From Octopus sinensis (lineage: Eukaryota): a DNA stretch of 64,000 nt. Position 1 is the stretch's first letter. Every line of letters begins with the position of its first letter. Shown in pieces: positions 3,405 through 62,664 of the stretch. Where the stretch lies: the NCBI RefSeq assembly GCF_006345805.1, contig NC_043004.1, positions 83,080,001-83,144,000 of the forward strand, given 5' to 3'. A model generated the notes under the pieces. That model was not told where the DNA came from. It saw only the letters and a program-made list of their open reading frames with translations, and searched no databases. The position numbers and the translations under genes were made by a program.

Positions 3405-5406
<2,002 letters not shown>

Positions 5407-5603: not shown

Positions 5604-7120
5604 GTCTATATATAATTTACTATAGAAATTACACCAGAATATATGATTATGGCGTATCGATGCCAATTCGAATTCCGAACACGTAAACACGTAGAATTTT
5701 CCTATATGCATGATTAAATGTATACGAATAAATTGTATTGTAAGAAACGCGACTTTAGCATGGCAAAATATATACGCTTAAGGAATAGCAAATATCACTT
5801 GGAGAAGTTGTGATAGCATAAAAAAGAAAGCAGATAATAGAATGAGTGAGTTGGGAGAACAGGTGTGAGAGAAAAAGCAGTCTAGGGAAGAAGAATGTCA
5901 ACGACCATCACTTTTCGTTTGATAGATTGGGTGGTTTACTAAGCTCAATCTCTGACCCAAATTTTAAAGCTACCGCACTGGTGGCTTTCTACGTTGCAGA
6001 AAGCTTATTTTATTTATTTATTTGTTTAGTCAGATAGCTTTTACCTACTTTTTGACTTTTCCTCTGACGGTCAATCTTCACTCCTAGTTTTGACGCATGA
6101 ACATCGGTGTATAGCTGCATCTCTTTAAGTTTTACAAAAACATCTGCTGGGACGAACATACTGATATTTCTGCCTTGTCCTTGTGAAAGTCTCATTTCAT
6201 TATTCAAACTCACAGTCTCTGGTATTGTTTCCCAACGAACACGAAGAATTGTTGTTGTTTAGGTGCCACATTCTGCCGCAGTAACGGTCCTAGTCATTAA
6301 TGTTGAAAATTGTGTCTTTGAGCTGATGGCATTGAAGATGCCCAGGGACGCGTTGTGTCCTTAAGCCCGACACTTTATTTCCCATTGCTCCTGTCAGTAA
6401 GTTATAATTAATTCAAAAGCTGTGTCACGCCGAGTCTCTTTGAGAATTACGTTAAGGGTACGCGTGTTTATGGAATGCTCAACCACTTGCACGTTAATTT
6501 CCCAAGCAGGCTTTTCCATTGATCGGATGAACTGTAAACTTCGTTATCGTAATTTATGGAATTCCAGTTTATTTACCTTACTAAAGGTAGCATTGAAAAG
6601 GGGTAACAAGTTACCATCAGTTAAGCGATAAATATATAAAATTAGAATTACATAAAGGACGCATTTGGGTGGTGAGATGGCAAGATCATTAGCACATCGC
6701 TTAAATAGCATAGTGGCATTTACTCTGAATCTTTACAATTCCCTCTGATGTCAAGTTTACCTGTAATCCCTTCTGTGTCGATAGAATATAATACCAGTAA
6801 AGTACTGTAATCTATATAATTGGAAGCGTTCTAATTCTTTAAAATCCAGCGTTTCGTTCAGAGAAATGTTGCGATCTCGGTCATTTATACACCATGAAAA
6901 CCTGGTAAGTGGCCTTGTGGGCCCCAAGGCTCCAGGAGCAAACGAGGAAATAATACTGGTAATTTATTTTTAAAGTTTTGTAAATTAGCAATGAGTCTAC
7001 TGATTTACTTTACATCATATGATTTCCAATCGAATTTACTCAAATTGCTGGCAATAATCTAGGAAGCTTTTATTTTAGGACATTATTTCCTGAATTTTTG
7101 AAAAATGATATGATACTTAC

Positions 7121-8194
7121 ATTTTTGTGAAGATTCATGCCTGTATGAAGTGTCTTAACGGATAGCAGAAAAACTAATGTTGGTAACATACATATGAATA
7201 CTAGTTCTTCTTGGCTAAGAAAATTGTTTATAAGGCCAGCAAATATGGTACAGAGACCTAGTATCATATTTAAAATTATTGCCGATATGCTATACTTAAT
7301 AATTTTGTTGACATCCCCCAGTAAGTTGCACATTTCTTCGTGTTTCGTACAATAATGCACAATCATTTTGTTTCGGTAATTCCACTCAGCATTCGGTTGT
7401 ATTTCACATCCTGACACGAAAAACGCCTGGCACTTTTCCCTCAAAACTCTGAATTCTAAAACAAGGTATTCGATTAAAAACCAGGAAAAGTTGGCTTGGG
7501 GTAAAATTTGCAAAGCAACTAGTACAAATACCCACCAAGCGACAAAAATTGGCAGAGAAAATATATTATCATTTAAAGGAAAAGGATAAAAAAATATATC
7601 AAAAATGCCGGATTCATTACGCAATAGGGGCAAAATACATGCTAAAATCGGATGCATTATAAGCACTAAGAGAATTTGAAGAATGGTTCTGATTTTCGCT
7701 ATTTTAAACAAAAAGGAGATCCTATCATCACAATCATCACACACACACAAAAGTGTGCTATTCATAAAATTTTCTTTCAATGTTTTATATTGTTTGATTT
7801 TCGATACCATTATGAAGAAATTTAAATAGGAGCAAAATTTCCATTGTATCAGCATAAGGACAGTCAAGGTCTTAGGAAAAGACTCCAAGATAAAAGTTTT
7901 GTATGAATAAGATAAAAACAACGCACAGTCTGATAGAGTAAGGAGGTAGACCATTCGATATAAAATATACTGGCACTTCTTCTTAAGATTTGATGTACTT
8001 AACGGTATCTTCTCATCATTGATAAAGAAGAACTTCTCCCATAATTCAAATAATTTTTTCCATCTACTTCGGTAAACCTTATCTTCTCTAACTTCACTGA
8101 ATTTTTCGTGAGTTTTCGACATATTTGATCTACCAAGTAACTGCAAAAACGAACAGATATAAAAGTTAATCAACAGAAACAATATCCCCTTCAT
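7121..8194 (-). CDS. Gustatory receptor-like (GRL/7TMIC) protein, paralogue 1, large first coding exon
   Basis: Multi-TM ORF with EFRVL and HEEMCNLLGDVNKII motifs, alignable to the 31747-32700 exon. It ends ..MNLHKN at a phase-0 donor AAT|GTAAGT at 7121/7120. The start may be Met at 8122 (MSKTHE), which follows a TTTTTGCAG acceptor. Downstream exons were not found in the window. Confidence 0.8.
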
Positions 8195-31330: not shown

Positions 31331-31746
31331 ACCCTTAAAAAACAGGGCCATTGAAAAACGAAACAAAGAGCATTGTTGTAGCACTTTAAGGTCCAGTGTA
31401 TTGCATGAAAGATCAGCTGTAAAACCAGATGTTGAAATAGCTTTGCGTTCAAAGGACAATAGCTTTCCATTTTTCTTTCTGAAATGTGGATGAAGATGTC
31501 ATCATAAAGAAAGCGGACTGTCTGCTATCTAAAATTTTTGAAGTGCCTACTTTGCGGCAAGGAACGCAACTGAGGGCAGCAGCTTAGAATTCCATCATTC
31601 ACCAAATGTATACTAAAGAAGATGGATCAGTAAACGTGTGGCAACATATACGTCGGTGCAACAGCATTGGAATATTTTACGATTTGGTAAAAGACAAAAG
31701 ATGCAATTAAGATTGGGTATTATGAAGATATTGTAAAAACACTCAC

Positions 31747-32700
31747 CGATTTATTTAAATGAATTCCACACAAAATTAATAATATTAAATAAAAGAAACA
31801 GCCAGTTGCCAACATTGACATATATAGGTATGAGTAGAGGTTACTTTTCAGTAAACGGTTTATAACCCCGTAAGTTGCAATACAACAACTAAAATTGCTA
31901 GCAACAACAATAAATCCTGATGTTAGTCGTAAAGATTCATTTAGAAATTTCAGTGTCCTTATCAGAGTTTCATGAGCGCTACATATTTCTGTGATATCTT
32001 TCTGCTTCTTAATGAAATTTGAATGGTCAGGTTGCTTCTCCGTTACATAACGTTCGGCTTCAGTTGCCAACTTGTTGAACTCATAGCTGAGTGTAAATCC
32101 GATTATCAGACCTAAGTGCAAATCAATTACCAAAAGTATAAGTGAAATGGAATTAAGTGCAGTTTGTATTCCTAAAACTGATATTTTAGATATATCACTG
32201 GTTGATATTGGAAACGTTAGGAACCTCATCAAATCGTTATTCAAATACGGTGCGCTAAAATCTACAAATATGTTAGAAAGGATGGTGAAGCAAATAATTG
32301 CATAAAATGTCTTAAATGAATACATGATATTCATGATGGAATATTTTTCATCATCATCTTCAAGTTTAATTTCGGCGACAGCTTCAGCCAGTTGTTTAGT
32401 TTGTGATTTTCTGAAGAGTTTTAACAATGCAAACACAGAAAGACTGCCTCTGAAAAACACCGTGAAACCATACAAAAGTAAGAGATGAATTTTAATTTCC
32501 CCATATAGTATTAAAGTAACAATGTGACGAATAGGGTTTATAATCAAATACAAACAGAACAGAATATAAAGTGCTTGAGAACAAATTGTTGTAAATATTG
32601 GTGACTTCAATGATGAAATAGTCATGCACGATTGGATAAAATTATCACATTTCTGATAGAATTCCAGTAGTTTAAAGAACTGAGTTTCTTTCACTTTCAT
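31747..32700 (-). CDS. GRL paralogue 2, exon 1 (318 aa, TM1-TM6); full gene join(32700-31747, 28157-28089, 26182-26093, 21890-21834) = 389 aa
   Basis: Multi-TM ORF with YEFNKL and HETLIRTLKFLNESL. It ends ..GIHLNKS at donor TCG|GTGAGT (phase 0), followed by three short phase-0 exons as is typical of the GR/GRL family. Confidence 0.85.
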
Positions 32701-34963: not shown

Positions 34964-37630
34964 TTTGATACTTTGATACTTTGATAGGTTTCGGCCATTA
35001 TTGGCCCAGGCCATGTCTAACTTAATAGCACCACCTGGTGAAGTCTTTCAAGTCAGAATTTGGGCACTATGGCCCACTCAAGTAGAGAGTTATTGTTTAC
35101 AGAGACATATCCGGGTGTAGGGGGTTTATCCGGGATTTCTTGAAGGAATCTGTCCAAAGACTTCTTGAACCCTATAGGGTCAGTTTCTGTTTTAATGTGT
35201 TTTGGTGTAATGTTAAAGAGAGCGGGGCCAATTGAGGTGAAATAATTGTGCCGTATTGTTGTTATGAGATGAGAGTGCGATTTTTGTTTTGGGCGGATGG
35301 CACGGGGCCCAAGCCTTGGATGTACCTTAAAGGTGATGCCAACATCATTTGGGCAATGCTGATGGAATATTTTCCACATCATGCAGATGATGTAGCGCTC
35401 ACGACGACGTTGGAGAGAATAGAGTTTTAGCTTTTCTAGTCGACCCCAATAGTCGAGGCCTGTCATGCCATCTATCTTTTTTGTGATTGCCCTTTGAGGT
35501 GCTTCGACTTTTTTGATACCTTGTATTGTGTGGGGAGACCACAGTGGACAACAGTATTCAAGGTGGGGTCGGGCAAAAGTAGAGAAGAGAAGGATAATGG
35601 TGTGGATATCTCTCGACTGGAAAGTTCTGAGAATCCAGGAACACATTCTGCGGGCCATGTCAACTTTGGTGTTTATATGAGTGGCCCAGCTTACGTTGTT
35701 GTCCACAATTACTCCCAAGTCTCTGATGTTGTTGGACGCCGCGAGAGTTTCACCTGAAGGAAGGGAGTATGGGAGTTTCAGGGCATCCTCTTTTCCAAAG
35801 TGGATTAGCTCAAATTTATCCTCGTTCAGCAGCATATTGTTTTTTTCTGCCCATTGGATAACAGCCAGTAGATCTGACTGAAGGCATGTCCGGTCACTCG
35901 CCTCATTTATGACCTTCTGTAGCTTGGAGTCATCTGCAAAGATTTTTATGTTGCTGTGCTTGATGATGTCATTAATGTCATTAATGTAAATGATGAAAAG
36001 AAGTGGGCCCAGCACAGTGCCTTGCGGAACGCCACTACTGACTTTGGCTGGGCTTGATTTTACCCCTTCAACTACAACATGTTGAGATCTGTCTGTCAAG
36101 AAACACTTAATCCATTTCAGTAACTTTCCAGAGACACCAATGTTGGATAGTTTTTTCAATAGGATCTTGTGATCGACCCTGTCGAAGGCCTTACTGAAAT
36201 CAAGGTAGATGACATCGGTGTTGGAGCCCTCTCCCAAAGCTCTCAAAATGTCCTCAAAGTGATGCAGGAGCTGCGTTAGGCAGTCCCTTCCATTACGGAA
36301 CCCATGTTGGTTGGAGATCAGCCGTCTGTTGCTTTCCAGAAATTGGGTTATTTGAGATCTCACCACCCTCTCAAATACCTTGATGATATGAGAGGTGAGT
36401 GAGATCGGACGGTAATTCACTGCAAGGGACTTGTTTCCCTTTTTGAAAACTGGGACAACAGACTGGGACAGAAGGTTTTTTGGAATATAGCCAGCATCCA
36501 GTGAGTTTCTCCACAGATTAGCAAGGGGAGATGCAAGTTGGTGTCGACACACCTTCAGGACACAAGCAGGGAACCTATCGGGGCCTACTGCTGAATTGTG
36601 TTTTATTTCGTTTATCGCCGCTAAGACATCAGGGGCACTAAACGTTATGTCCGATATAGTGTGTTGGGGGTTGACATCACTGATACAGCCCAGATCGGCC
36701 ATATCAGGATTGCTGAAAACAGAGCAGTATTGTTTCTGCAGTATCTCGGCCATGGATTTGGCATTATCTTGGAGAGTGCCAGTTTCGTCAATTAGAGGGC
36801 CTACAGTGGAGACAGTGACCCTGCGTTTCCTCGCAAATGAAAAGAACACTTTGGGGTTGAGTTTGATTTTTTCAATGGCCCACTTCTCCTCAGCTGATCT
36901 TTGGTTATTGATGAGGGACTTCATGCATTGTTGGAGGTTATATTTTTTGGATTCAAGCAGTGCGATAGCCGTCGAATGTGTGTGTTGCTGTTGGCAGTAC
37001 TTTAGTTTGTTAATTTTTTTGTTTGTTCTTTTTATTTTTCTGATAATGGTTTTTCTGTTTTGGGGGATTCTGCACTTTTTGTTCACAGGTCTTGGTGGGG
37101 AGTGTTTTGCACATATGTCTGTGACGGTGTCTACAAAGATCTGCCAAGATGTTTTATGGTTGGTGGAGATGTGTGTATGTGTAAAGGACCAGTCAACATT
37201 TGATAGCTCGTTCCTGATTGCATCCCAGTTGGCTTTATGGAGATCCATGTTGTCAAATGGGTGGGCTGGAGGAAGGTCACTAGGATTAGCTTTCGGCTGG
37301 TGGAATTTCATGTTACAGAGAACCATGTCATGGTCTGAAAGAAGGGTTTTTTCCACTGTAACGTTATGTATAGTGTTAGTGTGGTTACTAAACACTAGGT
37401 CCAAAATGTTCTGATGTCTTGTTGGTGCAAGGACAAGTTGGGACAAGAAAAACTCATTCGTAAAGTCGAAAAGTGACTCTGCTGCTTCTTTGTCAGCGGT
37501 TGAGGCGGGAGTGCTTGGTTTCAAACAGTTTGTAGTCCAGTCAACACAGGGTAGATTGAAGTCTCCCATCATGAGTATGTTGCTAGAATGGCACTGTTGA
37601 ATAAAGCACTTAATGCTGTTGAGGCATTCT
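34961..37630 (-). mobile_element. CR1/jockey-group LINE with uninterrupted 839-aa ORF2 (C-terminal APE part plus RT), 5'-truncated
   Basis: ORF 35053-37572: GDFNLP, PTR..NILDLVF, SDH (APE); [29 protein letters not shown] (RT). 3' tail (TATCAAAG)n at about 34961-34985. Confidence 0.95.
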
Positions 37631-42220: not shown

Positions 42221-42627
42221 ATTTTGATTTAAACCTTTGCTTAGATATATATGACAGTTTGAAGAATGTTGATCTTACAGACTATTATGAGATATCTCAT
42301 GTAAAGAGTATCGTTTGCTCCAAATAAGGATGTAGATTCATTGATTAGCGTGAGATTTAAAAATGAGTAATGATTGCCTCGTCATAGTCACAGATATAAG
42401 CAGAACAACAAACATAACAGATCTATTAGTTAAAGATTGTTTACATATATATATATTTTTTTAAATTATTATTTGAGGGAATAAAATCCAAACTTACAAG
42501 GTAAAAGAATTCAATTTAGAAATACTAAATCAAATTCCACACAATATAATATGTATATAAGATATTAGAAAAAGCACCTTTTATCAATTCAAAATGAATA
42601 ATTACATAGCACCATCTAGAAAATTAC

Positions 42628-43930
42628 GGCTGCTCAACCACTCAAATGTGGAAGTGATATATCTCGACTTTGCAAAGGCCTTTGATAAAGTCGATCATGG
42701 AATGATATGTCACAAACTGCGTGATCTCAACATAGTTGGAAAACTGGGAGAATGGCTTCATGACTTTCTGAAGGATAGAAGTCAGGTGGTAGTAGCCAAT
42801 GGGGCCACCTCCATTAACACACAAATAGTGAGCGGTGTTCCGCAGGGCACTGTTCTGGGACCACTACTGTTCATAATGGCCCTCTCAGACATGCCCTCAG
42901 CCACGCAGAGAGCCACGATCACAAGTTATGCAGATGATACAAAAGTTTCACAGGCAATACAGAACCCTGAGGACACTAAACACCTGCAATGTGAGCTGGA
43001 CGAAATATACAAGTGGGCTGAAAAGAATAGCATGCAGTTCAATGCTGGAAAGTTTCAAGCTTTATACTATCAGCATGCAAAACTGAATGCAATACCCAAT
43101 GAATACACTGGACCCGGAGGGATTGCAATCCCAGAGGCACAATCAGTGCGTGACCTGGGTATTCACATGAGTGATGACGCGACCTTTCATGTACATGTTG
43201 CTAAACTGACACTGAAATGTAGACGGCTGGCTGGATGGATTCTTAGAACCTTTAGAACAAGAGAACAAGAAACCATGATGGTCCTCTGGAAGACACTTGT
43301 CCTAAGCCACTTTGACTATTGCTCTCAGCTATGGTCACCATCCAGTGTCAAGTTGATCACAGAACTTGAGGCGACCCAACGAAGCTACACAAAGAAGATA
43401 GCCTCTATGCAGAATGTAAGCTACTGGGAAAGACTCAAGAGATTAAAATTATATTCCCTGGAGCGTAGGCGGGAAAGATATGCCATAATATACATCTGGA
43501 AGATCCTGGAGGGAAGTGTCCTGAACTTTGGCATCGAGAGTTACGCAAATGCCAGAACTGGGCCCCACTGCGTGGTGCCTAGGACTCCAAACCTGCCATC
43601 AAGATGTAGGACAAGATTCTGTGATAGCCTGGGCTTCCGAGGCCCACAGCTCTTCAATATCCTCCCGAAGAACCTGAGAGACCTGCATGGGGTGGATACA
43701 GATGTCTTTAAAATGAAGCTGGATCTCTTCCTGTCAGGTGTCCCAGATGAACCAACTTCACGGCAGGAGGGGCAGATGAGGGCAGCTGCATCGAACTCTC
43801 TCATGCACCAAATAGCAGTTGCTAGAAAGCCTCCATGAAGTGAAACCAAGTAGCAACACCAAATGGCGGTGCCCCAGCATGGCCACAGCTCATAAGCTGA
43901 AACTAGAATCAATCAATCAATCAATCAATC
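42628..43930 (+). mobile_element. CR1/jockey-group LINE, 5'-truncated, open RT C-terminal frame, (AATC)n tail
   Basis: ORF 42594-43838 ([29 protein letters not shown]). 3' UTR GGCGGTGCCCCAGCATGGCCACAG and tail at 43907-43930. Inserted in one arm of a foldback (about 42560-44120). Confidence 0.93.
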
Positions 43931-45077: not shown

Positions 45078-45720
<643 letters not shown>

Positions 45721-45909
45721 TTTTGATAATCAGTGAATAGACTTCACTGAATATAGATATATACAATTGCGAAGTCGAGGCAAATATCACCACCCCCCTC
45801 TTTTTTTTGGTTATTGTGGTGTGTTTGTTTCGAGTGCGTCATTGTGAAGAGGTTGTGAGTTCGAGTTCGTTGGAGGACGTTGAAAAGTTTTTGTTGGAGA
45901 TTTTTGAAA

Positions 45910-47253
45910 ATGCAAGAGCAGACTTATGCGAGAGCAGCAGGCAGAGGCCTAGTTGCCAGTGAACAGGAAATGGAAGAAGTGGTGGTCGAACAGAAAACTC
46001 TAGAGAAGTATTTCGACAGTTTAAAGAGGGAGGGTGACTGCGTGAGAGTCACACCGTCCGAGGAGGAAGAAAGCAACACGGAGAAGCGTATGATTACGTA
46101 CAGGACATGGTGTGTGGCGTCGAAAAAAGTTGAAGTAGCAGAAACGGAAGAAGTAGAAAAGTGTCTGAAGGAAATTGAGGGTGAACCCACATTTTACAAA
46201 AGAGGTAGGAAATATGCCACAGTGGTGGTATATTTTAAAACAGAAAATGAAGCAAAAAAGAATGCAACAAGAATTTTGAAAACGGATAAGTGGACTTTAC
46301 TACCAAGTTACTGCGGAAGGAGGGCAGTGAGGATGAGAATTAGCAGAATTTCGCCCGAATTTAATATGGAGAGGTTGTTGGCGGCAGTGGTTTTCAACTG
46401 CAAGGATAGTGTGGAGGTGTTGAAGGTGGAGAAGTCAACAGAGGTTAAGTGGTGGGGATATACGGTGCAGGTTCTGGCACACATAACCGTGCGAGACCTG
46501 TACAACATCCCGGAGGAGTTGGTCTACCCTGATGAGACACGGCTTAGAGTCGTGGTAGAGGGAAGACCCCCAGTCTGCTATAATTGTAAATCAAGGGGCC
46601 ACCTGAAGGATGTGTGCCCGCGGGAAAAAACGAAAGCACCGGAGGCTGTAATAGAGGAGTGTAAAGATACGTGTGTGGAGGAGGGAGAAGTGCAGGAGGA
46701 AACAAAAGAGCAGCTAAATGAGGATACGGAAGAAGAACGAGCAAGTGCAGAGGAGGAAAGAACAGAAGATAGGAAGAGAACAAGGGTGGAATCACCACAG
46801 GAAGTGCAAAAAAAGAAAAAAATCAAAAGCAAGATAACAGAAGAAAAAGAAGAGAGAACACGCAAAGAAAAGGAAGTAAAAGAGAAGGCGAGAGAGCAGC
46901 CAAGGTCAGAGTTTGACCAAGAATGGGAGACAAGAGTGAAAGAGCAGTTGGAAGCGTGTAAAAAGGGAAGAAGGCCTGCAAGAAAAAACCTGAAAGTAGT
47001 TGTGATGTATATCAAGAATACAGAACTGGAAAAGAGACTTGCAGGTAGGAAAGGGTTGGTCAGGGTGAAGTTGAACCCAAAACTGTATGGTGACGATGTA
47101 AAAGGCGCAGTTATAGAAAAAGAAACATTCACAAAATTAAAAAATATATTTAATGCTATTTATATAACGCATTATGTACGGTATGACAATTTACCAAATG
47201 TTATTGACCAAATGGACTTAATAGAATATATGACGGACGAACGTCCAATATAA
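45910..47253 (+). CDS. Tx1/L1-ORF1-like (Gag-like) CCHC zinc-knuckle protein, unit A1, intact 447 aa
   Basis: MQEQTYA start, RRM-like region, RLRVVVEGRPPVCYNCKSRGHLKDVC (CX2CX4HX4C), K/E-rich linker and a C-terminal domain. No RT follows. Confidence 0.85.
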   Translation: MQEQTYARAAGRGLVASEQEMEEVVVEQKTLEKYFDSLKREGDCVRVTPSEEEESNTEKRMITYRTWCVASKKVEVAETEEVEKCLKEIEGEPTFYKRGRKYATVVVYFKTENEAKKNATRILKTDKWTLLPSYCGRRAVRMRISRISPEFNMERLLAAVVFNCKDSVEVLKVEKSTEVKWWGYTVQVLAHITVRDLYNIPEELVYPDETRLRVVVEGRPPVCYNCKSRGHLKDVCPREKTKAPEAVIEECKDTCVEEGEVQEETKEQLNEDTEEERASAEEERTEDRKRTRVESPQEVQKKKKIKSKITEEKEERTRKEKEVKEKAREQPRSEFDQEWETRVKEQLEACKKGRRPARKNLKVVVMYIKNTELEKRLAGRKGLVRVKLNPKLYGDDVKGAVIEKETFTKLKNIFNAIYITHYVRYDNLPNVIDQMDLIEYMTDERPI

Positions 47254-47657
47254 AAGAATTAGAATATATGTAATGTTAAAAAGTAAAATTGTTAATTGTA
47301 AAATTGTAAAATGTAAAATTGTATTTTGAACTGGAATATATGTAATAGTGAAATGTACAATTGTATTTTAAACGGAACTGCGAGTTGGGGGTTCGTAAGC
47401 CGTTCCATCTCATTATATATAATTCATCTTTATTTCATATTTTATTTTTACTTTATGTACCCCACGTCCCGTCTTGTAATGTCCCGTCTGAATTAGGGCC
47501 ATCTTGCCCAGAATAAAGATATAATATCACCAGCCGACCTTTTTTTTTTTGGAGTCGTTATTCTGGTGTGTTGGTTTCGAGTGCGTCATTGCGAAGAGGT
47601 TGTGACTTCGAGTTCGTTGCTGGAGGACGTGGTGGATTTTATTTGGAAATTTTGAAA

Positions 47658-48978
47658 ATGCAAGACCAGACGTATGCGAGAGATGCAGGCAGAGGCGTGG
47701 TTGCGAGTGAACTAGAAATGGAAAAAGTGGTAGTCGAGAAGAAGACTTTAGAAAAATATTTCGACAGTTTGAATAGGGAGGGTGACTGCGTGAGAGTCAC
47801 ACCGTCTAAAGAAGAAGAAAACAACGCGGAGAAACGTATGATAACATACAGGACATGGTGTGTGGCGTCAAGAAAAATAGAAGTAGCAGAGACGGAAGAA
47901 ATAGAGAAATGTCTGCAAGGAATTGAGGGTGAACCTACCTTTTTCAACAGAGGAAGGAAATATGCCACAGTGGTGGTACACTTTAAAATCGGAAAGTTGG
48001 ACTTTATTACCCAGTTTCTGCGGAAAGAGGGCAGTCACAATAAGAATTAGTAGGATTTCGCCCGAACTTAACATGGAGAGGATATTAGCGGCAGTAGTTT
48101 TCAACTGCCAGGAAAGTGTGGAGGTGGTGAAGGTGGAAAAGTCAACAGAAGTTAAGTGGTGGGGATATGCGGTACAGGTTCTGGCACATATAACCGTGCC
48201 AGACCTATACAACATCCCGGAGGAGTTGGTCTTCCCTGATGAGACACGGCTTAGAGTCGTGGTAGAGGGAAGACCCCCAGTCTGTTATAATTGCAAATTA
48301 AGAGGCCACATGAAGGATGTGTGCCCGCTGGAGAAAACGATAGCACCGGAGGCTGTAACGAAGGAGTGGAAAGATACGTGTGTGGAGGAGGGAGAAGTGC
48401 AGGAGGGAACGAAAGCAGTGGAGGCGCAAACGGAGGATCAGCTAATTGAGGATGTGGAAGAAGAACGTGCAAGTGCAGAGGATGAAAGAACAGAAGATAG
48501 GAAGAGAACAAGGGTGGAATCACCACCGAAAGTTCTAAAAAAGAAAAAAATCAAAAGCAAGATAACAGAAGAAAAAGAAGAGAGAACGTGCAAAGAAAAG
48601 GACGAACAGACAAAGACAGAGGTAAACCTAGAATGGAGAAAAAAAGTGAGATAACAGTTGGATGCTTGTAAAAAGGGAACAAGACCTGTAGGAAAATACC
48701 TGAAAGTATGCGTGTTGTACGTGAAAGACACAGAAGTGGAAAAAAGTCTTGCAGGTAGGAAAGGATTGATTATGGTTAAATTACACCCAAAACTGCATGA
48801 TGACGATGTGAAATTGGTAGTTGTAGATAGAGGAACATTTACTAAATTGAAAAGTATGTTTGATGAGGTTTATTTAACGTATTATGTATGTTATGACAAT
48901 TTGCCAAATGTGATAGACCAGATGGAATTAACAAAGTACATTACGGACGAACGTCCAATAGAACTGGAATATATGTAA
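47658..48978 (+). pseudogene. CCHC ORF1-like, unit A2 (41-nt deletion frameshift at about 47985, stop at 48652)
   Basis: Paralogue of A1 split into ORFs 47568, 47923 and 48658. Confidence 0.85.
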
Positions 48979-49354
48979 TTGTAAAATTGTAAATTGTAAA
49001 ATTGTAAAATGTAAAATTGTAAAATGTAAAATTGTAACATTGTAAATTGTAAAATTGTAAAATGTAAAATTGTATTTTAAACGGAACTGCGAGTTGGGGG
49101 CTCTTAAGCCATTCCATCTAACTCATTACACATAATTCATCTTCATTTCATATTTTATTTTTACTTTATGTAATGTCCCCTCTGCATTCGGGCTATCGTG
49201 CCCATAATAAAGATATAATATCACCAGCCGACCTATTTTTTTTTTTTGGAGTCGTTATTCTGGTGTGTTTGTTTTGAGTGCGTCATTGTGAAGAGGTTGT
49301 GACTTCGAGTTCGTTGCTGGAGGACGTAGTGAATTTTATTTGGAGATTTTGAAA

Positions 49355-50677
49355 ATGCAAGACCAGACGTATGCGAGAGCAGCAGGCAGAGGCCTGGTTG
49401 CGTGTAAACTAGAAATGAAAGAAGTGGTAGTAGAGAAGAAGACTTTAGAAAAATATTTCGACAGTTTGAATAGGGAGGGTGACTGCGTGAGAGTCACACC
49501 GTCCGAAGAAGAGGAAAACAACGCGGAGAAACGTATGATAACATACAGGACATGGTGTGTGGCGTCAAGAAAAATAGAAGTAGCAGAGACGGAAGAAATA
49601 GAGAAATGTCTGCATGGAATTGAGGGTGAACCTACCTTTTTCAACAGAGGAAGGAAATATGCCACAGTGGTGGTACACTTTAAAATCGGAAAGTTGGACT
49701 TTATTACCCAGTTTCTGCGGAAAGAGGGCAGTCACAATAAGAATTAGTAGGATTTCGCCCGAACTTAACATGGAGAGGATATTAGCGGCAGTAGTTTTCA
49801 ACTGCCAGGAAAGTGTGGAGGTGGTGAAGGTGGAAAAGTCAACAGAAGTTAAGTGGTGGGGATATGCGGTACAGGTTCTGGCACATATAACCGTGCCAGA
49901 CCTATACAACATCCCGGAGGAGTTGGTCTTCCCTGATGAGACACGGCTTAGAGTCGTGGTAGAGGGAAGACCCCCAGTCTGTTATAATTGCAAATTAAGA
50001 GGCCACATGAAGGATGTGTGCCCGCTGGAGAAAACGATAGCACCGGAGGCTGTAACGAAGGAGTGGAAAGATACGTGTGTGGAGGAGGGAGAAGTGCAGG
50101 AGGGAACGAAAGCAGTGGAGGCGCAAACGGAGGAGCAGCTAATTGAGGATGTGGAAGAAGAACGTTTAAGTGCAGAGGATGAAAGAACAGAAGATAGGAA
50201 GAGAACAAGGGTGGAATCACCACCGAAAGTTCTAAAAAATAAAAAAATAAAAAGCAAGATAACAGAAGAAAAAGAAGAGAGAACGCGCAAAGAAAAGGAA
50301 GTAAAAGAGAAGGCGAGAGAGCAGACAATGACAGAGGATGACCAAGAATGGGAGCCAAAAGTGAAAGAGCAGTTGGAAGCTTGTAAAAAGGGAAGAAGAC
50401 CTGTAGGAAAAACCTGAAAGCATTCGTGATGTATATCAAAGACACAGAAGTGGAAAAAAGACTTGCAGGTAGGAAAGGATTGATCAGGGTGAAGTTGCAC
50501 CCAAAACTGTATGGTGACAATGTGAAAGGGGTAGTTATAGAAAAAGAGACATTTACAAAATTGAAAAGGATATTTAATGCTGTTTATGTAGCGCAATATG
50601 TTCGTTATGACAATTTGCCAAATGTGATAGAACAGATGGTATTGATAGAGTATATGACGGACGAACGTCCAATATAA
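49355..50677 (+). pseudogene. CCHC ORF1-like, unit A3 (same 41-nt deletion; frameshift near 50410)
   Basis: Paralogue split into ORFs 49340, 49614 and 50426. Confidence 0.85.
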
Positions 50678-50923
50678 AAGAACTTGAATACATGTAATGT
50701 TAAAATGTAAAATTGTAAATTGTAAAATTGTATTTTAAACGAAACTGCGAGTTGGGGGCTCCTAAGCCATTCCATCTAACTCATTACACATAATTCATCT
50801 TCATTTCATATTTTATCTTTTACTTTATGTACCCCACGTCCCGTCTTGTAATGTCCCCTCTGCATTCGGGCCATCGTGCCCATAATAAAGATATAATATC
50901 ACCAGCTGACCGGTGTCTGTTAC

Positions 50924-50968
50924 TCTAGGCCGATGAAGGAAAACGATCCTGAAACACGTGTCCCTAGA
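50924..50968 (+). ncRNA. Minimal type I hammerhead ribozyme (CCGANGA core variant, palindromic stem III)
   Basis: TCTAGG-CCGATGA-AGGA(aaacga)TCCT-GAAAC(acgt)GTC-CCTAGA. Confidence 0.72.
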
Positions 50969-51155
50969 TGCAGTTCCGGCAGTGTTTGTCTCCCCTTCGT
51001 AAACGTATATAAGGACACAGGGAAAAATGTGTTAAAGCCATCAGGAGGCGTTCGATGCTTCCTAGGGCTATACAGCGGTGGTGTCCCCCCTACTGTCACG
51101 TTCTTGTTAGATTGACAGTATACAACTATTCTATATATATATATATATTTACATA

Positions 51156-52585: not shown

Positions 52586-53664
52586 TATATATATATACAT
52601 CGTCGGTAAATCATAAATCCGAAAAGGAAGTTGCAGAGCGGTATAGTATAAAACTAGATAAGGCCGTTCTATGAGAATACCCTGGGTTTCAAGTCCATAA
52701 AGCGTTTAGCTTCACCACTTATTATCAGACCCCGAAACCTGTTGGCACATGGCCCCTCTAACAAGCGCTTTTCTTTACTTCGCTAGCATGTCAGATTTTC
52801 GATAGGAAGAGGATTCATGCTAATCACTCGAAACTTTGGGGGAAAAAATGTGCCGTGTATGCTTCTACCATGAGCATCGTATCAGGGGACAAGGAACGAA
52901 ACCAGGACCTGATTTCAATATTTTGAATGGTTTTTTTTTATATATATATTAGCATTAAAGACCCGTCGTTGCCGGGTCATAGTGCTAGTGCATGTATATA
53001 TGTGTATACATATGTGTACATATTACATGTACATCTATATATACATCTACACATAAAATACAAAATACAAAGTTATATCTTGATATCGCTAGTGATAACA
53101 ATATTCAAAATATATCACAGACTGGAATTGTTAGCCCGTCTCTTGTAATTTCGATCAATTGTATCTTGTCCTCCCTCTTGTATAGAAGTGTGGCTCCAAT
53201 CCAGCCTACTTCTACTGCTGGGGGGGGGGGCATTTAAATTTTTTTCCCGGGACGTCCTACGTCCCAGATATAATATTTCCACTTTGCAATTTCGAGTCGA
53301 GTACTCCCTTCCATGCTCCGTTGACTCGAACCTTGCTTCTATTGTGTCGAATTTACCGCCTCTGATTAGATATCTTTCATAGTCGCACCAAGACACTTTT
53401 CGAAGGTGCTTTCCTCTATGTGATTTTATTACTACCCACAAGGGGCGAACATAGAGGGGACAATACAATCGGGGAACTTAAAATAAGAAAGCGAAATGAC
53501 AAGAAGGGAAAAAATAAAAATAAAAATGACAAATGAAAGAATATTTACAATGAGATGCAAATGCCCACTCGATCCCCGGAATCGAGAGGTTACATTTTCG
53601 TCACCTATAGTTCACAATTTTTTTTTTCTTTTTTCTCTTCTTTCTTCTCTCTCCTCTCACAATC

Positions 53665-55063
53665 TCACACGTATTCCATAATACTTTTCAAGTCTCTAAA
53701 GTCAATCACTGAGCCCTCAGGCAGCCGCTCTTTCACTCGAACACCCGTGTAAAAATTACACTCTCTCCAGCTGCTCTGAGGAACTCAGCGACTCTTTCTT
53801 CGGGGATCAGAGCAGTCTCCTGCCACTGATCAGTCATCCTGTTGACCCACACATGTCCCTCCATACTACATGTCAATTCCTTCATTTCGGGGCTGAAATG
53901 GAAGGTTATTAACTTGTAGTAATCTTGTTTCCGTCCTACGTTTTCTCTCGTTTTTCTTTTCGGGCTTATTTCTTCCTTGTTCTCCTCTCTTTGTTTCTCT
54001 CTTTCTCTCTTTTTGCCTTCTTTTCTTTCTTCTTCCTTCTCTTGTCTTTTTGGTTCTTTGTCTGTTCTCTCTTTCTCTCGTGTTTTATGTTCCTTTTCTT
54101 TTTCTTTTTGTGTGCCGTCTTTTCTTTTCGTTTGGTTCTGTTCTCTCTCTTGTTTTTTTCCTGTTGTTTCTTTTTCCTTTTTCTTTTCCTGACTCTGTTT
54201 TGGTTCTATTTCTTTCTTTTCTTTTATTTCTTTTTCCTTCGTTGACTTATTATTTCCTTTCTCTTGTTGTTTTGTCTCCTTTTCTATGTTTTCTTTTTCA
54301 TTTACCGTATTCTTCTTTTCTTCATTTTCCTTCTCATACTCCGCCATGAATTCATATAACGGGCACTCTTTTTTAATGTGCCCCCTTGTCCCGCACAAGT
54401 AGCAGTTTGGCTTTCTTCCCTCTACAATTACACTGAGGGTTTTCTCGTCTTCGATTTCTATTCTATAGGGGAACCTTTCAATGTCCTCTTTTGTGGCCAT
54501 CAAACACAGTTCTACCCCATATCCTCTCCAATTTACTGCGTTGGACTCCTTAAAGGATTCCACCTCCACTTCCTCTTCTGCTGCTCCTAGAATAGCTGTT
54601 GCCAGCCATTCTGTTTTTACTTCTGGGGGTATATTCGGGATTTTAACCCGGACCCCTCTTCTTCCCTTGTATGAGGGCCACATTATAAATGTTTCCGCTC
54701 TTAGAACAGTGGTAGCCAGTGAGGCTGCAATTTCTTCCGTTGCACATCTCACCTCCACCGTACCAAATTTTTTTCCTCTACTCACGTAGGTCGATTTATC
54801 CATTATGTCTCCCAGACATTTTTCGATCTCTGCTATCTCCACTCTTGCCAGTTTCTTTGTACTTTTGTCCTGGGTTCTATACGTTACAGTTTTGTTTTCC
54901 TTGTCCTCCTTTGCTTTCGCGGGGGGATTAGCTTCACGCTATCACCCTCCCTTTTGAATAGCTTTTCATATTCTTTGATTTTACTTTTCTCAAAGAAAAC
55001 ATCCTTCACGATTATTGCCGAATCATTATTATTCTTTCCCGTGACCCCCGCGTAAGTCGCCAT
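53665..55063 (-). pseudogene. CCHC ORF1-like, unit B2 (two 1-nt homopolymer deletions relative to B1)
   Basis: Near-identical to 55447-56847. Length 1399 versus 1401 nt. Confidence 0.8.
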
Positions 55064-55446
55064 GACTAGAGGGTCAATTCACCTTCTTCAGAAGGTTTCC
55101 AAACGTGGAGGCAAATGCCTCGCGCGATATTAATCACTTTACACAACAAAATTTCAACGTCTAATCACAGATAACAACACACGTGGGTAAATTTCCTCCA
55201 TGTGATTTTATTACTACCCACAAGGGGCGAACATAGAGGGGACAATACAATCGGGGAACTTAAAATAAGAAAGCGAAATGACAAGAAGGGAAAAAATAAA
55301 AATAAAAATGACAAATGAAAGAATATTTACAATGAGATGCAAATGCCCACTCGATCCCCGGAATCGAGAGGTTACATTTTCGTCACCTATAGTTCACAAT
55401 TTTTTTTTTCTTTTTTCTCTTCTTTCTTCTCTCTCCTCTCACAATC

Positions 55447-56847
55447 TCACACGTATTCCATAATACTTTTCAAGTCTCTAAAGTCAATCACTGAGCCCTC
55501 AGGCAGCCGCTCTTTCACTCGAACACCCGTGTAAAAAATTACACTCTCTCCAGCTGCTCTGAGGAACTCAGCGACTCTTTCTTCGGGGATCAGAGCAGTC
55601 TCCTGCCACTGATCAGTCATCCTGTTGACCCACACATGTCCCTCCATACTACATGTCAATTCCTTCATTTCGGGGCTGAAATGGAAGGTTATTAACTTGT
55701 AGTAATCTTGTTTCCGTCCTACGTTTTCTCTCGTTTTTCTTTTCGGGCTTATTTCTTCCTTGTTCTCCTCTCTTTGTTTCTCTCTTTCTCTCTTTTTGCC
55801 TTCTTTTCTTTCTTCTTCCTTCTCTTGTCTTTTTGGTTCTTTGTCTGTTCTCTCTTTCTCTCGTGTTTTATGTTCCTTTTCTTTTTCTTTTTGTGTGCCG
55901 TCTTTTCTTTTCGTTTGGTTCTGTTCTCTCTCTTGTTTTTTTCCTGTTGTTTCTTTTTCCTTTTTCTTTTCCTGACTCTGTTTTGGTTCTATTTCTTTCT
56001 TTTCTTTTATTTCTTTTTCCTTCGTTGACTTATTATTTCCTTTCTCTTGTTGTTTTGTCTCCTTTTCTATGTTTTCTTTTTCATTTACCGTATTCTTCTT
56101 TTCTTCATTTTCCTTCTCATACTCCGCCATGAATTCATATAACGGGCACTCTTTTTTAATGTGCCCCCTTGTCCCGCACAAGTAGCAGTTTGGCTTTCTT
56201 CCCTCTACAATTACACTGAGGGTTTTCTCGTCTTCGATTTCTATTCTATAGGGGAACCTTTCAATGTCCTCTTTTGTGGCCATCAAACACAGTTCTACCC
56301 CATATCCTCTCCAATTTACTGCGTTGGACTCCTTAAAGGATTCCACCTCCACTTCCTCTTCTGCTGCTCCTAGAATAGCTGTTGCCAGCCATTCTGTTTT
56401 TACTTCTGGGGGTATATTCGGGATTTTAACCCGGACCCCTCTTCTTCCCTTGTATGAGGGCCACATTATAAATGTTTCCGCTCTTAGAACAGTGGTAGCC
56501 AGTGAGGCTGCAATTTCTTCCGTTGCACATCTCACCTCCACCGTACCAAATTTTTTTCCTCTACTCACGTAGGTCGATTTATCCATTATGTCTCCCAGAC
56601 ATTTTTCGATCTCTGCTATCTCCACTCTTGCCAGTTTCTTTGTACTTTTGTCCTGGGTTCTATACGTTACAGTTTTGTTTTCCTTGTCCTCCTTTGCTTT
56701 CGCGGGGGGGATTAGCTTCACGCTATCACCCTCCCTTTTGAATAGCTTTTCATATTCTTTGATTTTACTTTTCTCAAAGAAAACATCCTTCACGATTATT
56801 GCCGAATCATTATTATTCTTTCCCGTGACCCCCGCGTAAGTCGCCAT
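55447..56847 (-). CDS. Tx1/L1-ORF1-like CCHC zinc-knuckle protein, unit B1, intact 466 aa
   Basis: MATYAG.., EIEKCL, RGKKFGTVEV, GRRGVRVKIPNIPPE, LSVIVEGRKPNCYLCGTRGHIKKEC, K/E-rich tail. Homologous to A1. Confidence 0.87.
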   Translation of the reverse strand: MATYAGVTGKNNNDSAIIVKDVFFEKSKIKEYEKLFKREGDSVKLIPPAKAKEDKENKTVTYRTQDKSTKKLARVEIAEIEKCLGDIMDKSTYVSRGKKFGTVEVRCATEEIAASLATTVLRAETFIMWPSYKGRRGVRVKIPNIPPEVKTEWLATAILGAAEEEVEVESFKESNAVNWRGYGVELCLMATKEDIERFPYRIEIEDEKTLSVIVEGRKPNCYLCGTRGHIKKECPLYEFMAEYEKENEEKKNTVNEKENIEKETKQQEKGNNKSTKEKEIKEKKEIEPKQSQEKKKEKETTGKKQEREQNQTKRKDGTQKEKEKEHKTREKERTDKEPKRQEKEEERKEGKKREREKQREENKEEISPKRKTRENVGRKQDYYKLITFHFSPEMKELTCSMEGHVWVNRMTDQWQETALIPEERVAEFLRAAGESVIFYTGVRVKERLPEGSVIDFRDLKSIMEYV

Positions 56848-57840
56848 GACTAGAGGGTCAATTCACCTTCTTCAGAAGGTTTCCAAACGTGGAGGCAAAT
56901 GCCTCGCGCGATATTAATCACTTTACACAACAAAATTTCAACGTCTAATCACAGATAACAACACACGTGGGTAAATTTCCTCTATGTGTTCAAATCTTCT
57001 TTTTTTTCTACATTGTATACTTTTTAGACAATAGTCTTTTCTTTAATTAATTTTTTTATTATCCATCTGGACTATTCCATTTCTGCACGCGAATTTTATT
57101 TTTAATTTATTCTCATTCATGTGAAACCACTTATTCAAGTTCAAGTCATTGATGCAATTTTATACCAATTGCTATTTTTACTTTTTTTATGTTACGATTA
57201 TATTACACTTTAGTTTAATTTTAATTATTACTTCCTACATATAATTCAATTGTTATTATTATTTTTATTGTTAAAATGAAAGTATCTGACATAAAATAGA
57301 GAAACGTTTTTGCTTCACTTTTAACACGTAATACTGAAATAGTGGAGAAGATATGATGTTGCTATGGGCTTGCTATAGGCAAGAAGTTGAACATTTTTTG
57401 CGCCTGAAACTATATGGACCCTAATTAAGGCATGTGTAAAATTTGAATGGAATTGGTTGTGTATTTCTCAAGCTTTAGGGAATCGTAGTGGAGAAGATAT
57501 GATATTGTTGTGGGCTCGCCCTAGGCAAAAAGTTAAAAATAATTTGCCCATGAGACTCCCCGGACCCTAAGAAAGGCATGTGTAAAATTTGAAGGAAATT
57601 GGTTGTGTAGTTCTCAAGTTTTAGGGAAACACACAGACAGACAGACACACACACATTCTCAGTTTTATATATATATAAAGATTTCCGTAAAAGTTTCAAC
57701 AAACAAAAACAGTAAAGGAAGCACTGGTAAAAAAACTTACTTGAATATACACAAATATTTGATCAAATTTTAAAGTGTGCCTGTCCATAAAATATGCAAT
57801 CTGGCAAATAGGGTTCATAATGAAATATTTACAGAGCACA

Positions 57841-60216: not shown

Positions 60217-61965
60217 TCTTAAAATCCTTAAATCCTTAAAAATGTTTTAGCCCGAAGGCCGCGGCCATGCTGGGGCACCACCGCTGAATGAGCCACACTA
60301 GTTTGTGAATCCACCTCTGATACGTGGCACTTGATCAACAAGGGAGTTCGATGCTGCTGCCCGCATCCGTGTCTCCTGTCGTGAGGTAGGTTCATCTGGG
60401 ACTCCCAACAAGAAGAGATCCAGTTTAGTTTTAAAGAAACCCACATCCACACCATGTAAGTCTCTCAGGCATTTAGGGAGGATGTTGAAAAGCTGTGGTC
60501 CTCTGAAACCCAAGCTGTTGCAGTATCTGGACCTGTATTTTGATGGTGATGTTGGAATCCTTGGCACCACGCAGCGGCGCCCCGTTCTGCGGTTGGAGTA
60601 ACTTTGAATGCCAAAGTTTGGGATAAGACCCTCCAGGATTTTCCAGATGTATATTACTGCATATCTCTCCCGCCTCCGCTCCAGGGAGAAGAGGTTTAAT
60701 ACCTTCAGTCTTTCCCAGTAGCTGACATTTTGCATTGAGACGATTTCTTTGTGTAGCTTCTCTGAGTTGCTTCGAGTTCTGCTGTTTGTTTTATATTGTG
60801 TGGTGACCAAAGTTGGAGCAGTAGTCCAAGCGGCTGAGGACAAATTTTTCCATAGGACCATCAGTGTCTCCTTCTCTCTTGTTCTGAAAGTTCGGAGAAT
60901 CCATCCAGCTAGCCGTCTGCATTTTATCACCAGATTAGCAATATGCATTTGGAAAGATGCATCATTGCTCATGTCAATGCCCAGGTCACGCACTGATTTT
61001 GACTCAGGGATTGCAATTCTTCCTGGGCCAGTGTATCCAGTCTTCACGTCATTTACTTTGTGTGCCAGTAGCGCAGGGCCTGGAACTTACCTGCATTAAA
61101 CTGCATGTTGTTGTCCTCAGCCCACCTGTATATTGTGTCCAGCTCATGTTGCAGATGCGCAATATTTTCAGGGTTCTGTATTGCGTGGGAGACCTTTGTG
61201 TCATCTGCATAGCTAGCAAGGGTGGTCATCGTAGCAACTGAAGCATGTCTGAAAGGGCCACTATGAACATCAGTGGCCCCAAGACAGTGCCCTGTGGGAC
61301 ACCGCTTGTTATTTGCGTTTCCCTGGAGGTGGCTCCATTGCTCACAACTGCCTGTTTTCTGTCTTTTAGGAAGTTGTGCAGCCACTCTCCAAGTTTCCCG
61401 CCTATGCCGAGACCACGCAGTTTGTGACAGATCATACCATGGTCGACTTTATCAAAGGCTTTTGCAAAGTCAAGATATATTACATCCACATTTGAGCCAT
61501 TTAGTAGCTGTTTCAACACCCAGTCATAGTGTTGCAGGAGCTGTGTTAGGCAGCCTCTACCTGGTCGAAATCCATGCTGGGTGTCAGACAGTAAGTCATT
61601 TTCTTCAAGGAACATGATTAGTTTCTTACGGACTATTCGTTCCATGACTTTGCTGATGTGTGAGGTCAGAGAGATAGGCCTATAATTTTTAGCATCTGCT
61701 CTGCTCCCTCCCTTATGGATAGGGCATATTACCCCGTCTTTCAGTTTGACTGGGAGCTTACCACTTGCAAGAAAGCTCTGAAAAAGAAGCTGTAGCGGTT
61801 TTGCAAGGGCTCGTTTGCACGATTTGAGAAGGATCGCTGGGAATCCATCAGGTCCAGCAGCTGAGTTTGTGTCAATCTCATCAATGGCTAGTGTGATATC
61901 ATCTTCTTCGATGTTGATGTACTCAATTTTTGTCTCTTTGGCCGCTGGTAAAGTGGCAAAGAATC
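60217..61965 (-). mobile_element. CR1/jockey-group LINE, 5'-truncated, frameshifted
   Basis: ORFs 61226-62044, 61053-61385 and 60298-61047 carry RT motifs. 3' GGTGCCCCAGCATGGCCGCGG and (AAGGATTT)n tail. Confidence 0.92.
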
Positions 61966-62468
61966 TAGTTAAAAAACAAACAAGCCCACAAACTCTCGCA
62001 CGCACACACACACATATACACACAGAGGCTGGTTTTCTTTGCATGACAATCGTTTGAACTTCTTTATATATGTATACTATAAATCTTAGAGAGACTTCTC
62101 TCTAAGAAATTCACAAGTGCTGATATGAAATACATCTGTGAGTTTTGCTTCAGCAAAAGCATTTTCTGAGAAATAGCAGCAAACGTCTACTTTTCTTCTA
62201 ATATACAAAGAAATGTTTATCTGTTACATATTGTCGTAGAAATAGAAATGAGGGTTAAATATAGTAATTAATTTCGAAGCAGAGAATTCATTTGTTCGAA
62301 TGTATAGTCATATATTCACACTATTCTACAAACGCACGCGCGTACACGCGGACATCTCTCTCCCTTTCTCTCTCTCTACCTTTCTTTTTCTCTCTCTCTT
62401 TCTGCATATATATATACGCATGTGTGTATGCATACATACACGCACATATGTATATACAATATACATAC

Positions 62469-62655
62469 CGGCGAGCTGGCAGAACCGTTAGTACGCCGGG
62501 CGAAGTGCGTAGCCACGTTTTTTTAGGTTGACTTTGCCTTTCATCCTTTCGGGGTCGATGAATTAAGTGCCAGTTACGCGCTGGGGTCGATGTAATCGAC
62601 TTATCCCTTTGTCTGTCCTTGTTTGTCCCCTCTGCGTTTAGCCCTTGTGGGTAGT
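62469..62655 (+). mobile_element. SINE with Deu/Nin-domain-like core
   Basis: GGCGAGCTGGCAGAACCGTTAG head; GCCTTTCATCCTTTCGGGGTCGAT..AAGTGCCAG central motif. Confidence 0.55.
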
Positions 62656-62664
62656 AGTAAAAAA

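Follow-up and report, generated by a model that had tools for sequence, protein, structure and literature searches.

Structure of the array

The stretch of Octopus sinensis DNA analysed here (64,000 nucleotides of contig NC_043004.1, hereafter the window) contains, at 45783..50911, a tandem array formed by three head-to-tail units that start at 45783, 47523 and 49217 and are closed by a further copy of the junction motif at 50895. Each unit is a copy of an element of about 1.7 kb that carries the first open reading frame (ORF1) of a long interspersed element (LINE) and no ORF2; it is very probably an ORF1-only LINE derivative that is mobilised in trans and has inserted repeatedly at this locus. 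The flank of the array is a mobile repeat of approximately 362 bp with a type I hammerhead-like motif, called here the host repeat. Loci elsewhere in the genome are cited by number (L038, L041, etc.). The features of the locus, by position in the window, are the following.

45205..45721, no strand assigned: inverted pair of partial host-repeat monomers, a 94.6% palindrome; 5' inversion is common at copies of the repeat
45463..45792, plus strand: left part of the 362-bp host repeat, interrupted by the array
45752..45765, plus strand: TATA-like box, TATAWAWR with one mismatch, starting at -31, -29, -27 and -25 from the insertion; putative promoter element
45783..45792, plus strand: left target-site duplication (TSD), AATATCACCA; putative start-site region
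45793..47522, plus strand: unit 1, young sub-lineage, 1.2% from L131, an off-target copy elsewhere
45910..47253, plus strand: intact ORF1 of unit 1, 447 residues (A1)
47496..47522, plus strand: 3' tail of unit 1, with a GGGC/GCCC hairpin, AATAAA and GATAT and no poly(A)
47523..47539, plus strand: inner junction 1, a target-like motif running into the leader of unit 2
47540..49216, plus strand: unit 2, older sub-lineage; ORF start at 47658, frameshift by a 41-nt deletion near 47990
49217..49233, plus strand: inner junction 2
49234..50894, plus strand: unit 3, older sub-lineage; ORF start at 49355, 41-nt deletion near 49687 and second frameshift near 50410
50895..51134, plus strand: right target copy and right part of the host repeat, with a (TA)n end
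50925..50967, plus strand: type I hammerhead-like motif, with stem I CTAGG/CCTAG, core CCGATGA, stem II AGGA/TCCT, GAAA and a short stem III

A motif search in the window bore out the initial annotation of three diverged units of about 1.7 kb, with periods of 1740, 1694 and 1678, each with a T-rich leader and a 3' untranslated region that ends in AATAAA with neither poly(A) nor ORF2; this 3' end has the order hairpin-AATAAA-GATAT. The same annotation assigned one ORF to every unit, which has to be corrected, given that the ORF is open in unit 1 alone and is frameshifted in units 2 and 3. The junction motif had been described at all junctions and as flanking sequence; across the 64 kb AATATCACCA is indeed restricted to the four array boundaries and the flank does contain it, although the left copy comprises only 10 nt (AATATCACCA). 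The variable position of the annotated GCYGACC separates the boundaries, since the inner junctions read GCCGACC and the right host copy GCTGACC; the inner junctions are therefore not plain copies of the local target.

In a tree of units, unit 1 falls in a clade different from that of units 2 and 3, and its nearest copy, 1.2% away, is off target. The 41-nt deletion, which shifts the frame near codon 110, is common to units 2 and 3 and was present in two of the 32 units compared, both in the window; unit 3 has an additional 1-nt loss. Units 2 and 3 are 100% identical in alignment columns 450-900 and 81-89% alike in columns 1050-1500, and this patchy identity indicates that conversion or a template switch spread the deletion. 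The origin of unit 2 from a simple unequal exchange between units 1 and 3 was ruled out, its 3' third being only 78-85% like unit 1. No edited (A>G) copies were found among the window's own units.

A dispersed family that lacks ORF2

The N-terminal half of A1 has at least 152 matches in the genome (with 150 of 14,320 candidates scored), and the family that they define, family A, is dispersed over most chromosomes. In 141 fetched regions, none of the 133 family-A ORF1 matches was followed by an APE domain and 120 were followed by a tail, while 41 of 46 more distant ORF1 matches were followed by APE; these counts refer to matches with at least 1.4 kb of downstream sequence and not to unique copies. 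The array could have represented simple truncation if other copies were followed by ORF2, but this was the case in none of the 133 scored matches, L181 (see below) being the single exception. In a midpoint-rooted tree with a long-branch warning, for which 34 of 94 rows were kept after thinning, family A and the related family B of the window group apart from the ORF1s of autonomous elements with support of 100/99.

The family-A ORF is under purifying selection: among 13 intact ORFs the mean dN/dS is 0.11 over residues 1-240, with dN below dS in 52 of 52 pairs, and about 0.34-0.36 beyond residue 240. When flanks were tabulated, as the initial annotation had suggested, dispersed copies were found to carry TSDs of 10-18 nt and empty target sites were found to exist.

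The ORF1 protein

A1 is predicted to consist of RRM-like folds at residues ~50-137 and 136-219, a CCHC knuckle at 222-237, an acidic/basic linker and a folded C-terminal domain at 332-447. The single-sequence fold was unusable (pLDDT 36) and the model was refolded from alignment A2; the resulting model, from 23 alignment rows and with a mean pLDDT of 70, has two beta-alpha domains and the knuckle, then a disordered linker and, at the C-terminus, a folded domain. Its top Foldseek matches are tandem RRM proteins (E 7e-5), and VIA-align returned RRM/ferredoxin-like folds with Z up to 8.8, which are generic matches. The C-terminal domain, which these fold searches barely probed, gave no usable atlas match. 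That this domain could be specific to ORF1-only elements was dropped as unproven; autonomous ORF1s show a similar-looking segment by eye.

Pfam matched the CCHC knuckle alone, below the cut-off (E 0.0019), a profile search of the PDB matched chiefly zinc knuckles and did not match the solved human L1 ORF1p, and no homologue at E<=0.001 was found among 8000 scored candidates from a set of 5.8 billion proteins. Clusters with a ZCCHC3 domain appear among the atlas look-alikes of A1 at 0.87-0.90, which is a lead only.

Autonomous relatives and shared tails

A zf-RVT search of the same genome revealed autonomous LINEs of ~5.1-5.4 kb that contain an ORF1 and an ORF2 of ~1130 residues with APE, reverse transcriptase (RT) and zf-RVT domains. 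Their ORF1s, located upstream of the APE-RT ORF2s, are 27-37% identical to A1, with E values down to 5e-45. Among solved structures the closest to ORF2 is human L1 ORF2p (E 2.5e-68), with R2 at 2e-24, and the best named RT match, at 60%, is from Argonauta. These LINEs share with the Tx1 clade the APE, RT and C-terminal zinc motif, an L1-group RT, and the repeated use of the same sites in repeats; they are termed L1/Tx1-type here, and no named Tx1 reference was among the RT matches. Autonomous LINEs of this clade also occur in tandem runs with periods of 3.6-5.7 kb (G000:C9:76.60-76.62 Mb and C3:72.50-72.53 Mb).

An autonomous element with the same 3' end, which had been put forward as something to search for, was found for one tail type: one autonomous family ends in a hairpin-AATAAA tail of ~40 nt that is common to many family-A copies. 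Autonomous and ORF1-only copies are also present in two same target repeats (L171 with L201 and L211; L174 and L252-L261 with L218-L223). From the shared tail and the shared targets, family A is likely mobilised in trans by the ORF2 protein of such a partner. The units of the window carry a second tail type, a GGGCCATC hairpin with 40 matches, and a search for an autonomous element at the host repeat by a tail-plus-target pattern gave three matches, all in one ORF1-only locus.

The LINE tail is also shared by an abundant short interspersed element (SINE) of ~240 bp (window 62619-62662 and L274-L303), which often inserts into itself at one position; one pattern for this SINE has 2,723 exact matches. 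Its TSDs are 10-18 nt long and mostly start with GGTA, unlike the TSD start of the LINE clade, and several copies are SINE-in-SINE. One autonomous family (L234, L268, L269) lies just inside a SINE-like head sequence, possibly at an RNA polymerase III (Pol III) start and not at one of RNA polymerase II (Pol II).

The host repeat

The hammerhead-like motif lies 35 nt past the insertion point and has its predicted cut after GTC at 50962. Stems and core are all present by pattern, and the stems co-vary across three target repeats, where they are different and still paired; the fold of a 61-mer with the motif is not unusual (z -0.98). An Rfam scan gave no hammerhead match at E<=5; its only matches, to miRNA models, fell on palindromes and (TA)n, and none reached the gathering score. 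The host repeat occurs mostly as partial tandems of one or two monomers with 5' inversions, in (TA)n. In these respects it resembles a retrozyme with a predicted ribozyme, and it may be of Penelope pLTR origin; the Penelope-like protein encoded in the window had no match in the fetched loci. More hammerhead-like repeats were seen at L218-L223, L174, L209, L228, L331, L346 and L351, with core variants such as TTGAnAA and TTGACGA and the insertion ~30-35 nt upstream of the core.

A 25-nt target word has 172 exact matches in the genome; among the first 30, 24 are empty and six follow an element tail. When 20 regions around close copies were read, 14 had the arrangement left half, one to three units, right half, three had the right half only and three had neither. 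Between six loci that have young copies, mean divergence is 6.2% for the host repeat and 1.6% for the element, and all 15 pairs of loci show the greater divergence in the flank (upstream-flank identities, inflated by free end gaps, were excluded from this comparison). The young elements thus entered already diverged copies of the repeat independently. At L122 an inverted structure is centred within element sequence, which suggests that element and host repeat were once copied together.

Position of the insertions

Relatives of the element use other targets, with unrelated TSDs: two more hammerhead repeats, a repeat with CCAAT and TATA boxes, the start of a transposase-like ORF and the 5' ends of older relatives. 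In the three hammerhead repeats (which look unrelated by eye), the CCAAT and TATA repeat and the transposase-like ORF start, the insertion lies at the same distance and the TSDs differ. The CCAAT- and TATA-bearing repeat, unclassified, of ~1.2 kb and often in (TA)n (flanks of L171, L185 and L186), is used as a major target by both sub-family A2 and the autonomous partner.

A total of 62 sites, 57 from an automatic TSD finder and five added, were clustered by upstream sequence into 20 classes; the finder dropped repeats of 21 nt or more as well as inner junctions, and the clustering merged two different hammerhead repeats. A TATA-like box is located ~27 nt upstream of the insertion in most classes. 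The word TATAWAWR, which we take to be the TATA consensus, was present with at most one mismatch and a start at -36..-24 in 12 of the 20 classes, where the same flanks predict 1.82 (P 7e-9), and without mismatch in five, against 0.42 expected; the initiator-like word TYAGT occurs at the TSD in six classes, against 1.06. The initial annotation had proposed insertion at a single target. Repeated insertion stands, but the target is no fixed sequence; it is rather one position, ~27 nt past a TATA-like box, in several unrelated repeats.

The motif is also found at L241, a 5'-truncated autonomous copy. As a control, the SINE with the same tail has it at 4 of 25 TSD-bearing copies, with about two expected. 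One TATA-less site, L327, has 65% GC, is CpG-rich and has a splice-donor-like site 99 nt downstream; its upstream words are presumably ETS-, NRF1- and E-box-like. It has the appearance of a CpG-rich promoter with a short first exon behind it, although it lies within multi-copy DNA. One autonomous family (L173, L175, L180, L272, L273) has one fixed 18-nt TSD, in a repeat without a TATA-like box at -30.

Edited copies and growth of the arrays

Locus L211 has 70 A>G against 4 G>A changes, and its ORF (2659-3993) is still open with many recoded residues. The two upstream units of L130 have 96 A>G changes each, 95 of them shared, with a depletion of 5' G (5/94 versus 180/625). These ADAR-type clusters, fixed in the DNA of three genomic copies, indicate an RNA intermediate. 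Contigs from presumed-RNA runs cover parts of the ORF and are uninformative on starts or expression.

The off-target copies L038, L041, L043 and L060 start with sequence of the family's usual target. Such target-like leaders, together with the C variant at the inner junctions versus T in the host, fit a transcription start inside the TSD. In all four mixed arrays (window, L121, L123 and L124) the young-clade unit is upstream of the old-clade unit; older relatives carry the arrays of L187, L189 and L194 at their 5' ends. At L130 and L136 the sequence of the left junction recurs at the first inner one.

The explanation that we favour, and consider probable, is that the stack represents three copies of a dispersed 1.7-kb ORF1-only element, supplied with RT by a related L1/Tx1-type LINE, that were inserted separately at the predicted start of a hammerhead-bearing repeat. 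The clade would lack its own promoter and be aimed at Pol II start sites; such start-site aiming seems to us quite likely. The host promoter would then drive the inserted element and transcripts would start inside the duplicated target, so that daughter copies would carry a short 5' tag of the previous target. Because the promoter would be left in place, new copies would land at the promoter-side junction and older ones would be pushed downstream, and in this way arrays would build; local gene conversion would later have homogenised part of units 2 and 3. The aiming would be done in cis by the ORF1 protein, which would be the reason for a non-autonomous element to keep ORF1; this role is suggested by analogy with TRE5-A and HeT-A (see below) and by the contrast with the SINE.

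A wider scheme, which as a whole we hold tentatively and with some doubt, can be built on this explanation. A promoterless LINE clade would dock on the Pol II start complex via the ORF1 protein and would insert in sense at +1 of active promoters, hence every full insertion would be expressed. The ORF1-only offshoot would be old, persisting through the aiming protein that it kept and parasitising promoters that belong to retroelements with ribozymes; which promoters were active in the germ line, and in what order, would be recorded in the nested 5' tags and the ordered arrays.

Evaluation of alternative explanations

Several observations weigh against start-site aiming or against the proposed partnership. 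The window of -36..-24 was chosen post hoc, after inspection of the data. In a held-out test TSDs were present in only 13 of 40 new regions, and nine of these 13 had the TATA motif; at the level of classes only two of six new ones had it (P 0.07). Mis-paired junctions account for two of the six, and L353, one of the positives, resembles a distant relative of a known target. The motif is lacking in 8 of the 20 original classes, among them a whole autonomous family (five sites), L182 and L196 (in the tail or ORF of relatives) and family B of the window. The genome is rich in AT, and the TATA-like words, instead of marking promoters, could be what the endonuclease recognises; the SINE is possibly served by another LINE, which makes it a weaker control. 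Contigs from two presumed-RNA runs bridge 45692-46033, starting ~90 nt upstream of the putative start. In the 30 loci read, the GGGCCATC tail was found on no autonomous element, only on ORF1-only copies or as bare tail fragments, and five of these 30 loci are off target. Finally, in L181 a family-A 5' half is joined to an autonomous LINE, a chimeric or nested copy that arose by template switch or nested insertion.

Some of these points agree with an explanation that we judge unlikely, in which the ORF1-only element is the same but the endonuclease of each Tx1-type partner recognises a target specific to it, or a bendable, AT-rich segment that precedes the nick by ~30 nt, and the link with promoters is incidental or reflects survival of those copies that happen to be transcribed. 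According to PMC4494074, Tx1 families choose particular repeats, snRNA genes or microsatellites, a choice credited to the endonuclease; the octopus sub-families can be separated by their targets and tail types, the target of one autonomous family is fixed and TATA-less, the SINE has a fixed TSD start, and the held-out TATA test was not significant. However, a sub-family with 90% identity and one tail type has many unrelated TSDs and keeps the TATA distance (L187, L189, L199, L200, L201), diverged versions of the host repeat with different TSDs are hit at the same position, the truncated autonomous copy L241 has the TATA motif, and the TATA-less site that is used as well is promoter-like.

It is improbable that the family spread as a composite, i.e., by few insertions into the retrozyme-like repeat that were then spread by Penelope-type machinery, with arrays formed by tandem duplication or unequal exchange. 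The greater divergence of the host repeat in 15 of 15 pairs largely refutes this as the main route; several junction and tail types occur at one target, different clades coexist within one array, and copies in other targets have their own TSDs. Processes of this kind explain parts of some arrays but not the family: the inverted structure of L122 includes element parts, L126 and L127 have a common junction and differ by 0.6%, units 2 and 3 share their deletion and the identical columns 450-900, the L130 units share 95 edits, and the family B units are 99.8% alike. The initial annotation had also offered a domesticated ZCCHC3-like host gene family in local arrays, which is hardly credible. Purifying selection and the ZCCHC3-domain look-alikes would agree with it, yet selection is expected of a mobile element driven by master copies, and the ORF is homologous to the ORF1 of autonomous LINEs; moreover, the copies are dispersed, with young and many broken ones among them, they have TSDs, a LINE tail and empty sites, edited copies are fixed in DNA, and there is no fixed non-mobile locus. 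The other proposal of that annotation, site-preferring ORF1-only retroelements that insert repeatedly at one site, is supported by the dispersed copies, TSDs, empty sites, lack of ORF2 and the partner with the same tail.

Other features of the window

A second ORF1-only family and other coding regions were also noted in the window.

53410-56988, minus strand: family B, an ORF1-only dimer of two units 99.8% alike, related to the array element and 2.5 kb from the array
56847-55447, minus strand: intact ORF of family B, 466 residues, 37% identical to A1 over the N-terminal half
223-1854, minus strand: ORF of 543 residues with no Pfam match and with what we take to be a Penelope/Naiad-like RT motif
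7070-8194, plus strand: hydrophobic ORF of 374 residues, a chemoreceptor-like membrane protein by eye
31720-32700, minus strand: hydrophobic ORF of 326 residues, likewise chemoreceptor-like by eye, with no significant Pfam match
35053-37572, minus strand; 42594-43838, plus strand; 3469-5102, minus strand; 60298-62044, minus strand: fragments of another APE-RT LINE family, presumably CR1-like, the longest with RVT_1 and Exo_endo_phos_2 Pfam matches

The family B dimer has a 13-nt duplication at both ends and between its units, there with one mismatch, and its second unit is frameshifted. Upstream sequence in its flank is also present at L178, a locus at which an autonomous LINE and a B-like ORF1-only unit occupy a single site as a stack.

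Relation to known elements and significance

HAL1 (half-L1) of mammals is a non-autonomous L1 derivative that encodes only ORF1p (PMC5753468). The octopus element is likewise an ORF1-only non-autonomous LINE derivative: it encodes ORF1 alone, its ORF is homologous to the ORF1 of autonomous L1-group elements, and it has spread by retrotransposition. It is not a HAL1 in the strict sense, given its invertebrate genome and the absence of poly(A), and it also differs in its RRM-RRM-CCHC ORF1, its structured tail shared with LINEs, its strong target choice and its arrays. The closest working analogue is TRE5-A.2 of Dictyostelium, which bears ORF1, lacks ORF2 and is mobilised in trans, with an essential 3' module; TRE5-A ORF1p binds TFIIIB and has been proposed to select sites that lie a constant distance away from the transcription complex (PMC3159450). 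TRE5-A inserts ~50 bp upstream of Pol III genes, whereas the octopus element would use the Pol II start itself, in sense, with an apparently borrowed promoter. The octopus element works like HAL1 and TRE5-A.2, yet its origin is independent.

The target-specific Tx1 elements (Tx1L in Tx1D, Tx1-Mar with SINEU, Keno, Kibi and Koshi) are L1-group APE-RT LINEs found at fixed positions in other repeats; they mobilise non-autonomous partners with the same preference, and transcription from the flank has been proposed (PMC4494074). Each of them has one target sequence family, in contrast with the octopus clade, which uses many unrelated repeats at a constant TATA distance and has an ORF1-encoding partner. 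Tandems separated by target duplicates are known from repeated insertion of R1 and other double-insertion elements at one site (10.1101/158386); R1, however, is autonomous and sequence-specific for rDNA. HeT-A of Drosophila encodes only Gag, forms head-to-tail arrays, has a promoter partly outside the unit, and its Gag targets the ribonucleoprotein (PMC5537684). The octopus elements differ in that they insert internally with TSDs of 10-18 nt. HeT-A joins chromosome ends, where it is not known to produce TSDs, and it is not known as a member of the L1 group.

Non-LTR retrozymes and Penelope pLTRs are short non-coding monomers with a hammerhead, arranged in tandems (PMC7229834; 10.64898/2026.07.22.740005). 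The host repeat is similar in its ~360-bp non-coding monomer, its one type I hammerhead-like motif and its partial tandems, and differs in the core CCGATGA, in having mostly 1-2 monomers, in its 5' inversions in (TA)n and in the lack of an Rfam match. Retrozymes as a target of LINEs are not reported in the available portions of these two sources. A recent repeat annotation of octopus reports 13 L1-Tx1 families with recent activity; the words 'ORF1', 'non-autonomous' and 'hammerhead' are absent from its main text (PMC13282606). In the literature searched, neither an ORF1-only octopus LINE nor a LINE aimed at TATA boxes or start sites was found described, though Repbase, subscription journals and supplements may hold such families.

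To our knowledge, LINE derivatives with ORF1 alone have been described chiefly in mammals and otherwise in a few special cases; the octopus family is a large, old and recently active invertebrate lineage of this kind, and its edited copies fixed in DNA are an instance in which RNA editing has fed back into the genome. Should the position rule correspond to real start sites, the octopus clade would represent a LINE directed to Pol II initiation, and so a counterpart to what TRE5-A and Ty3 are for Pol III genes. In that case the reason why non-autonomous elements keep ORF1, and the relative parts of ORF1p and the endonuclease in the choice of site, would become testable, and the insertions would map the promoters of animal retrozymes.

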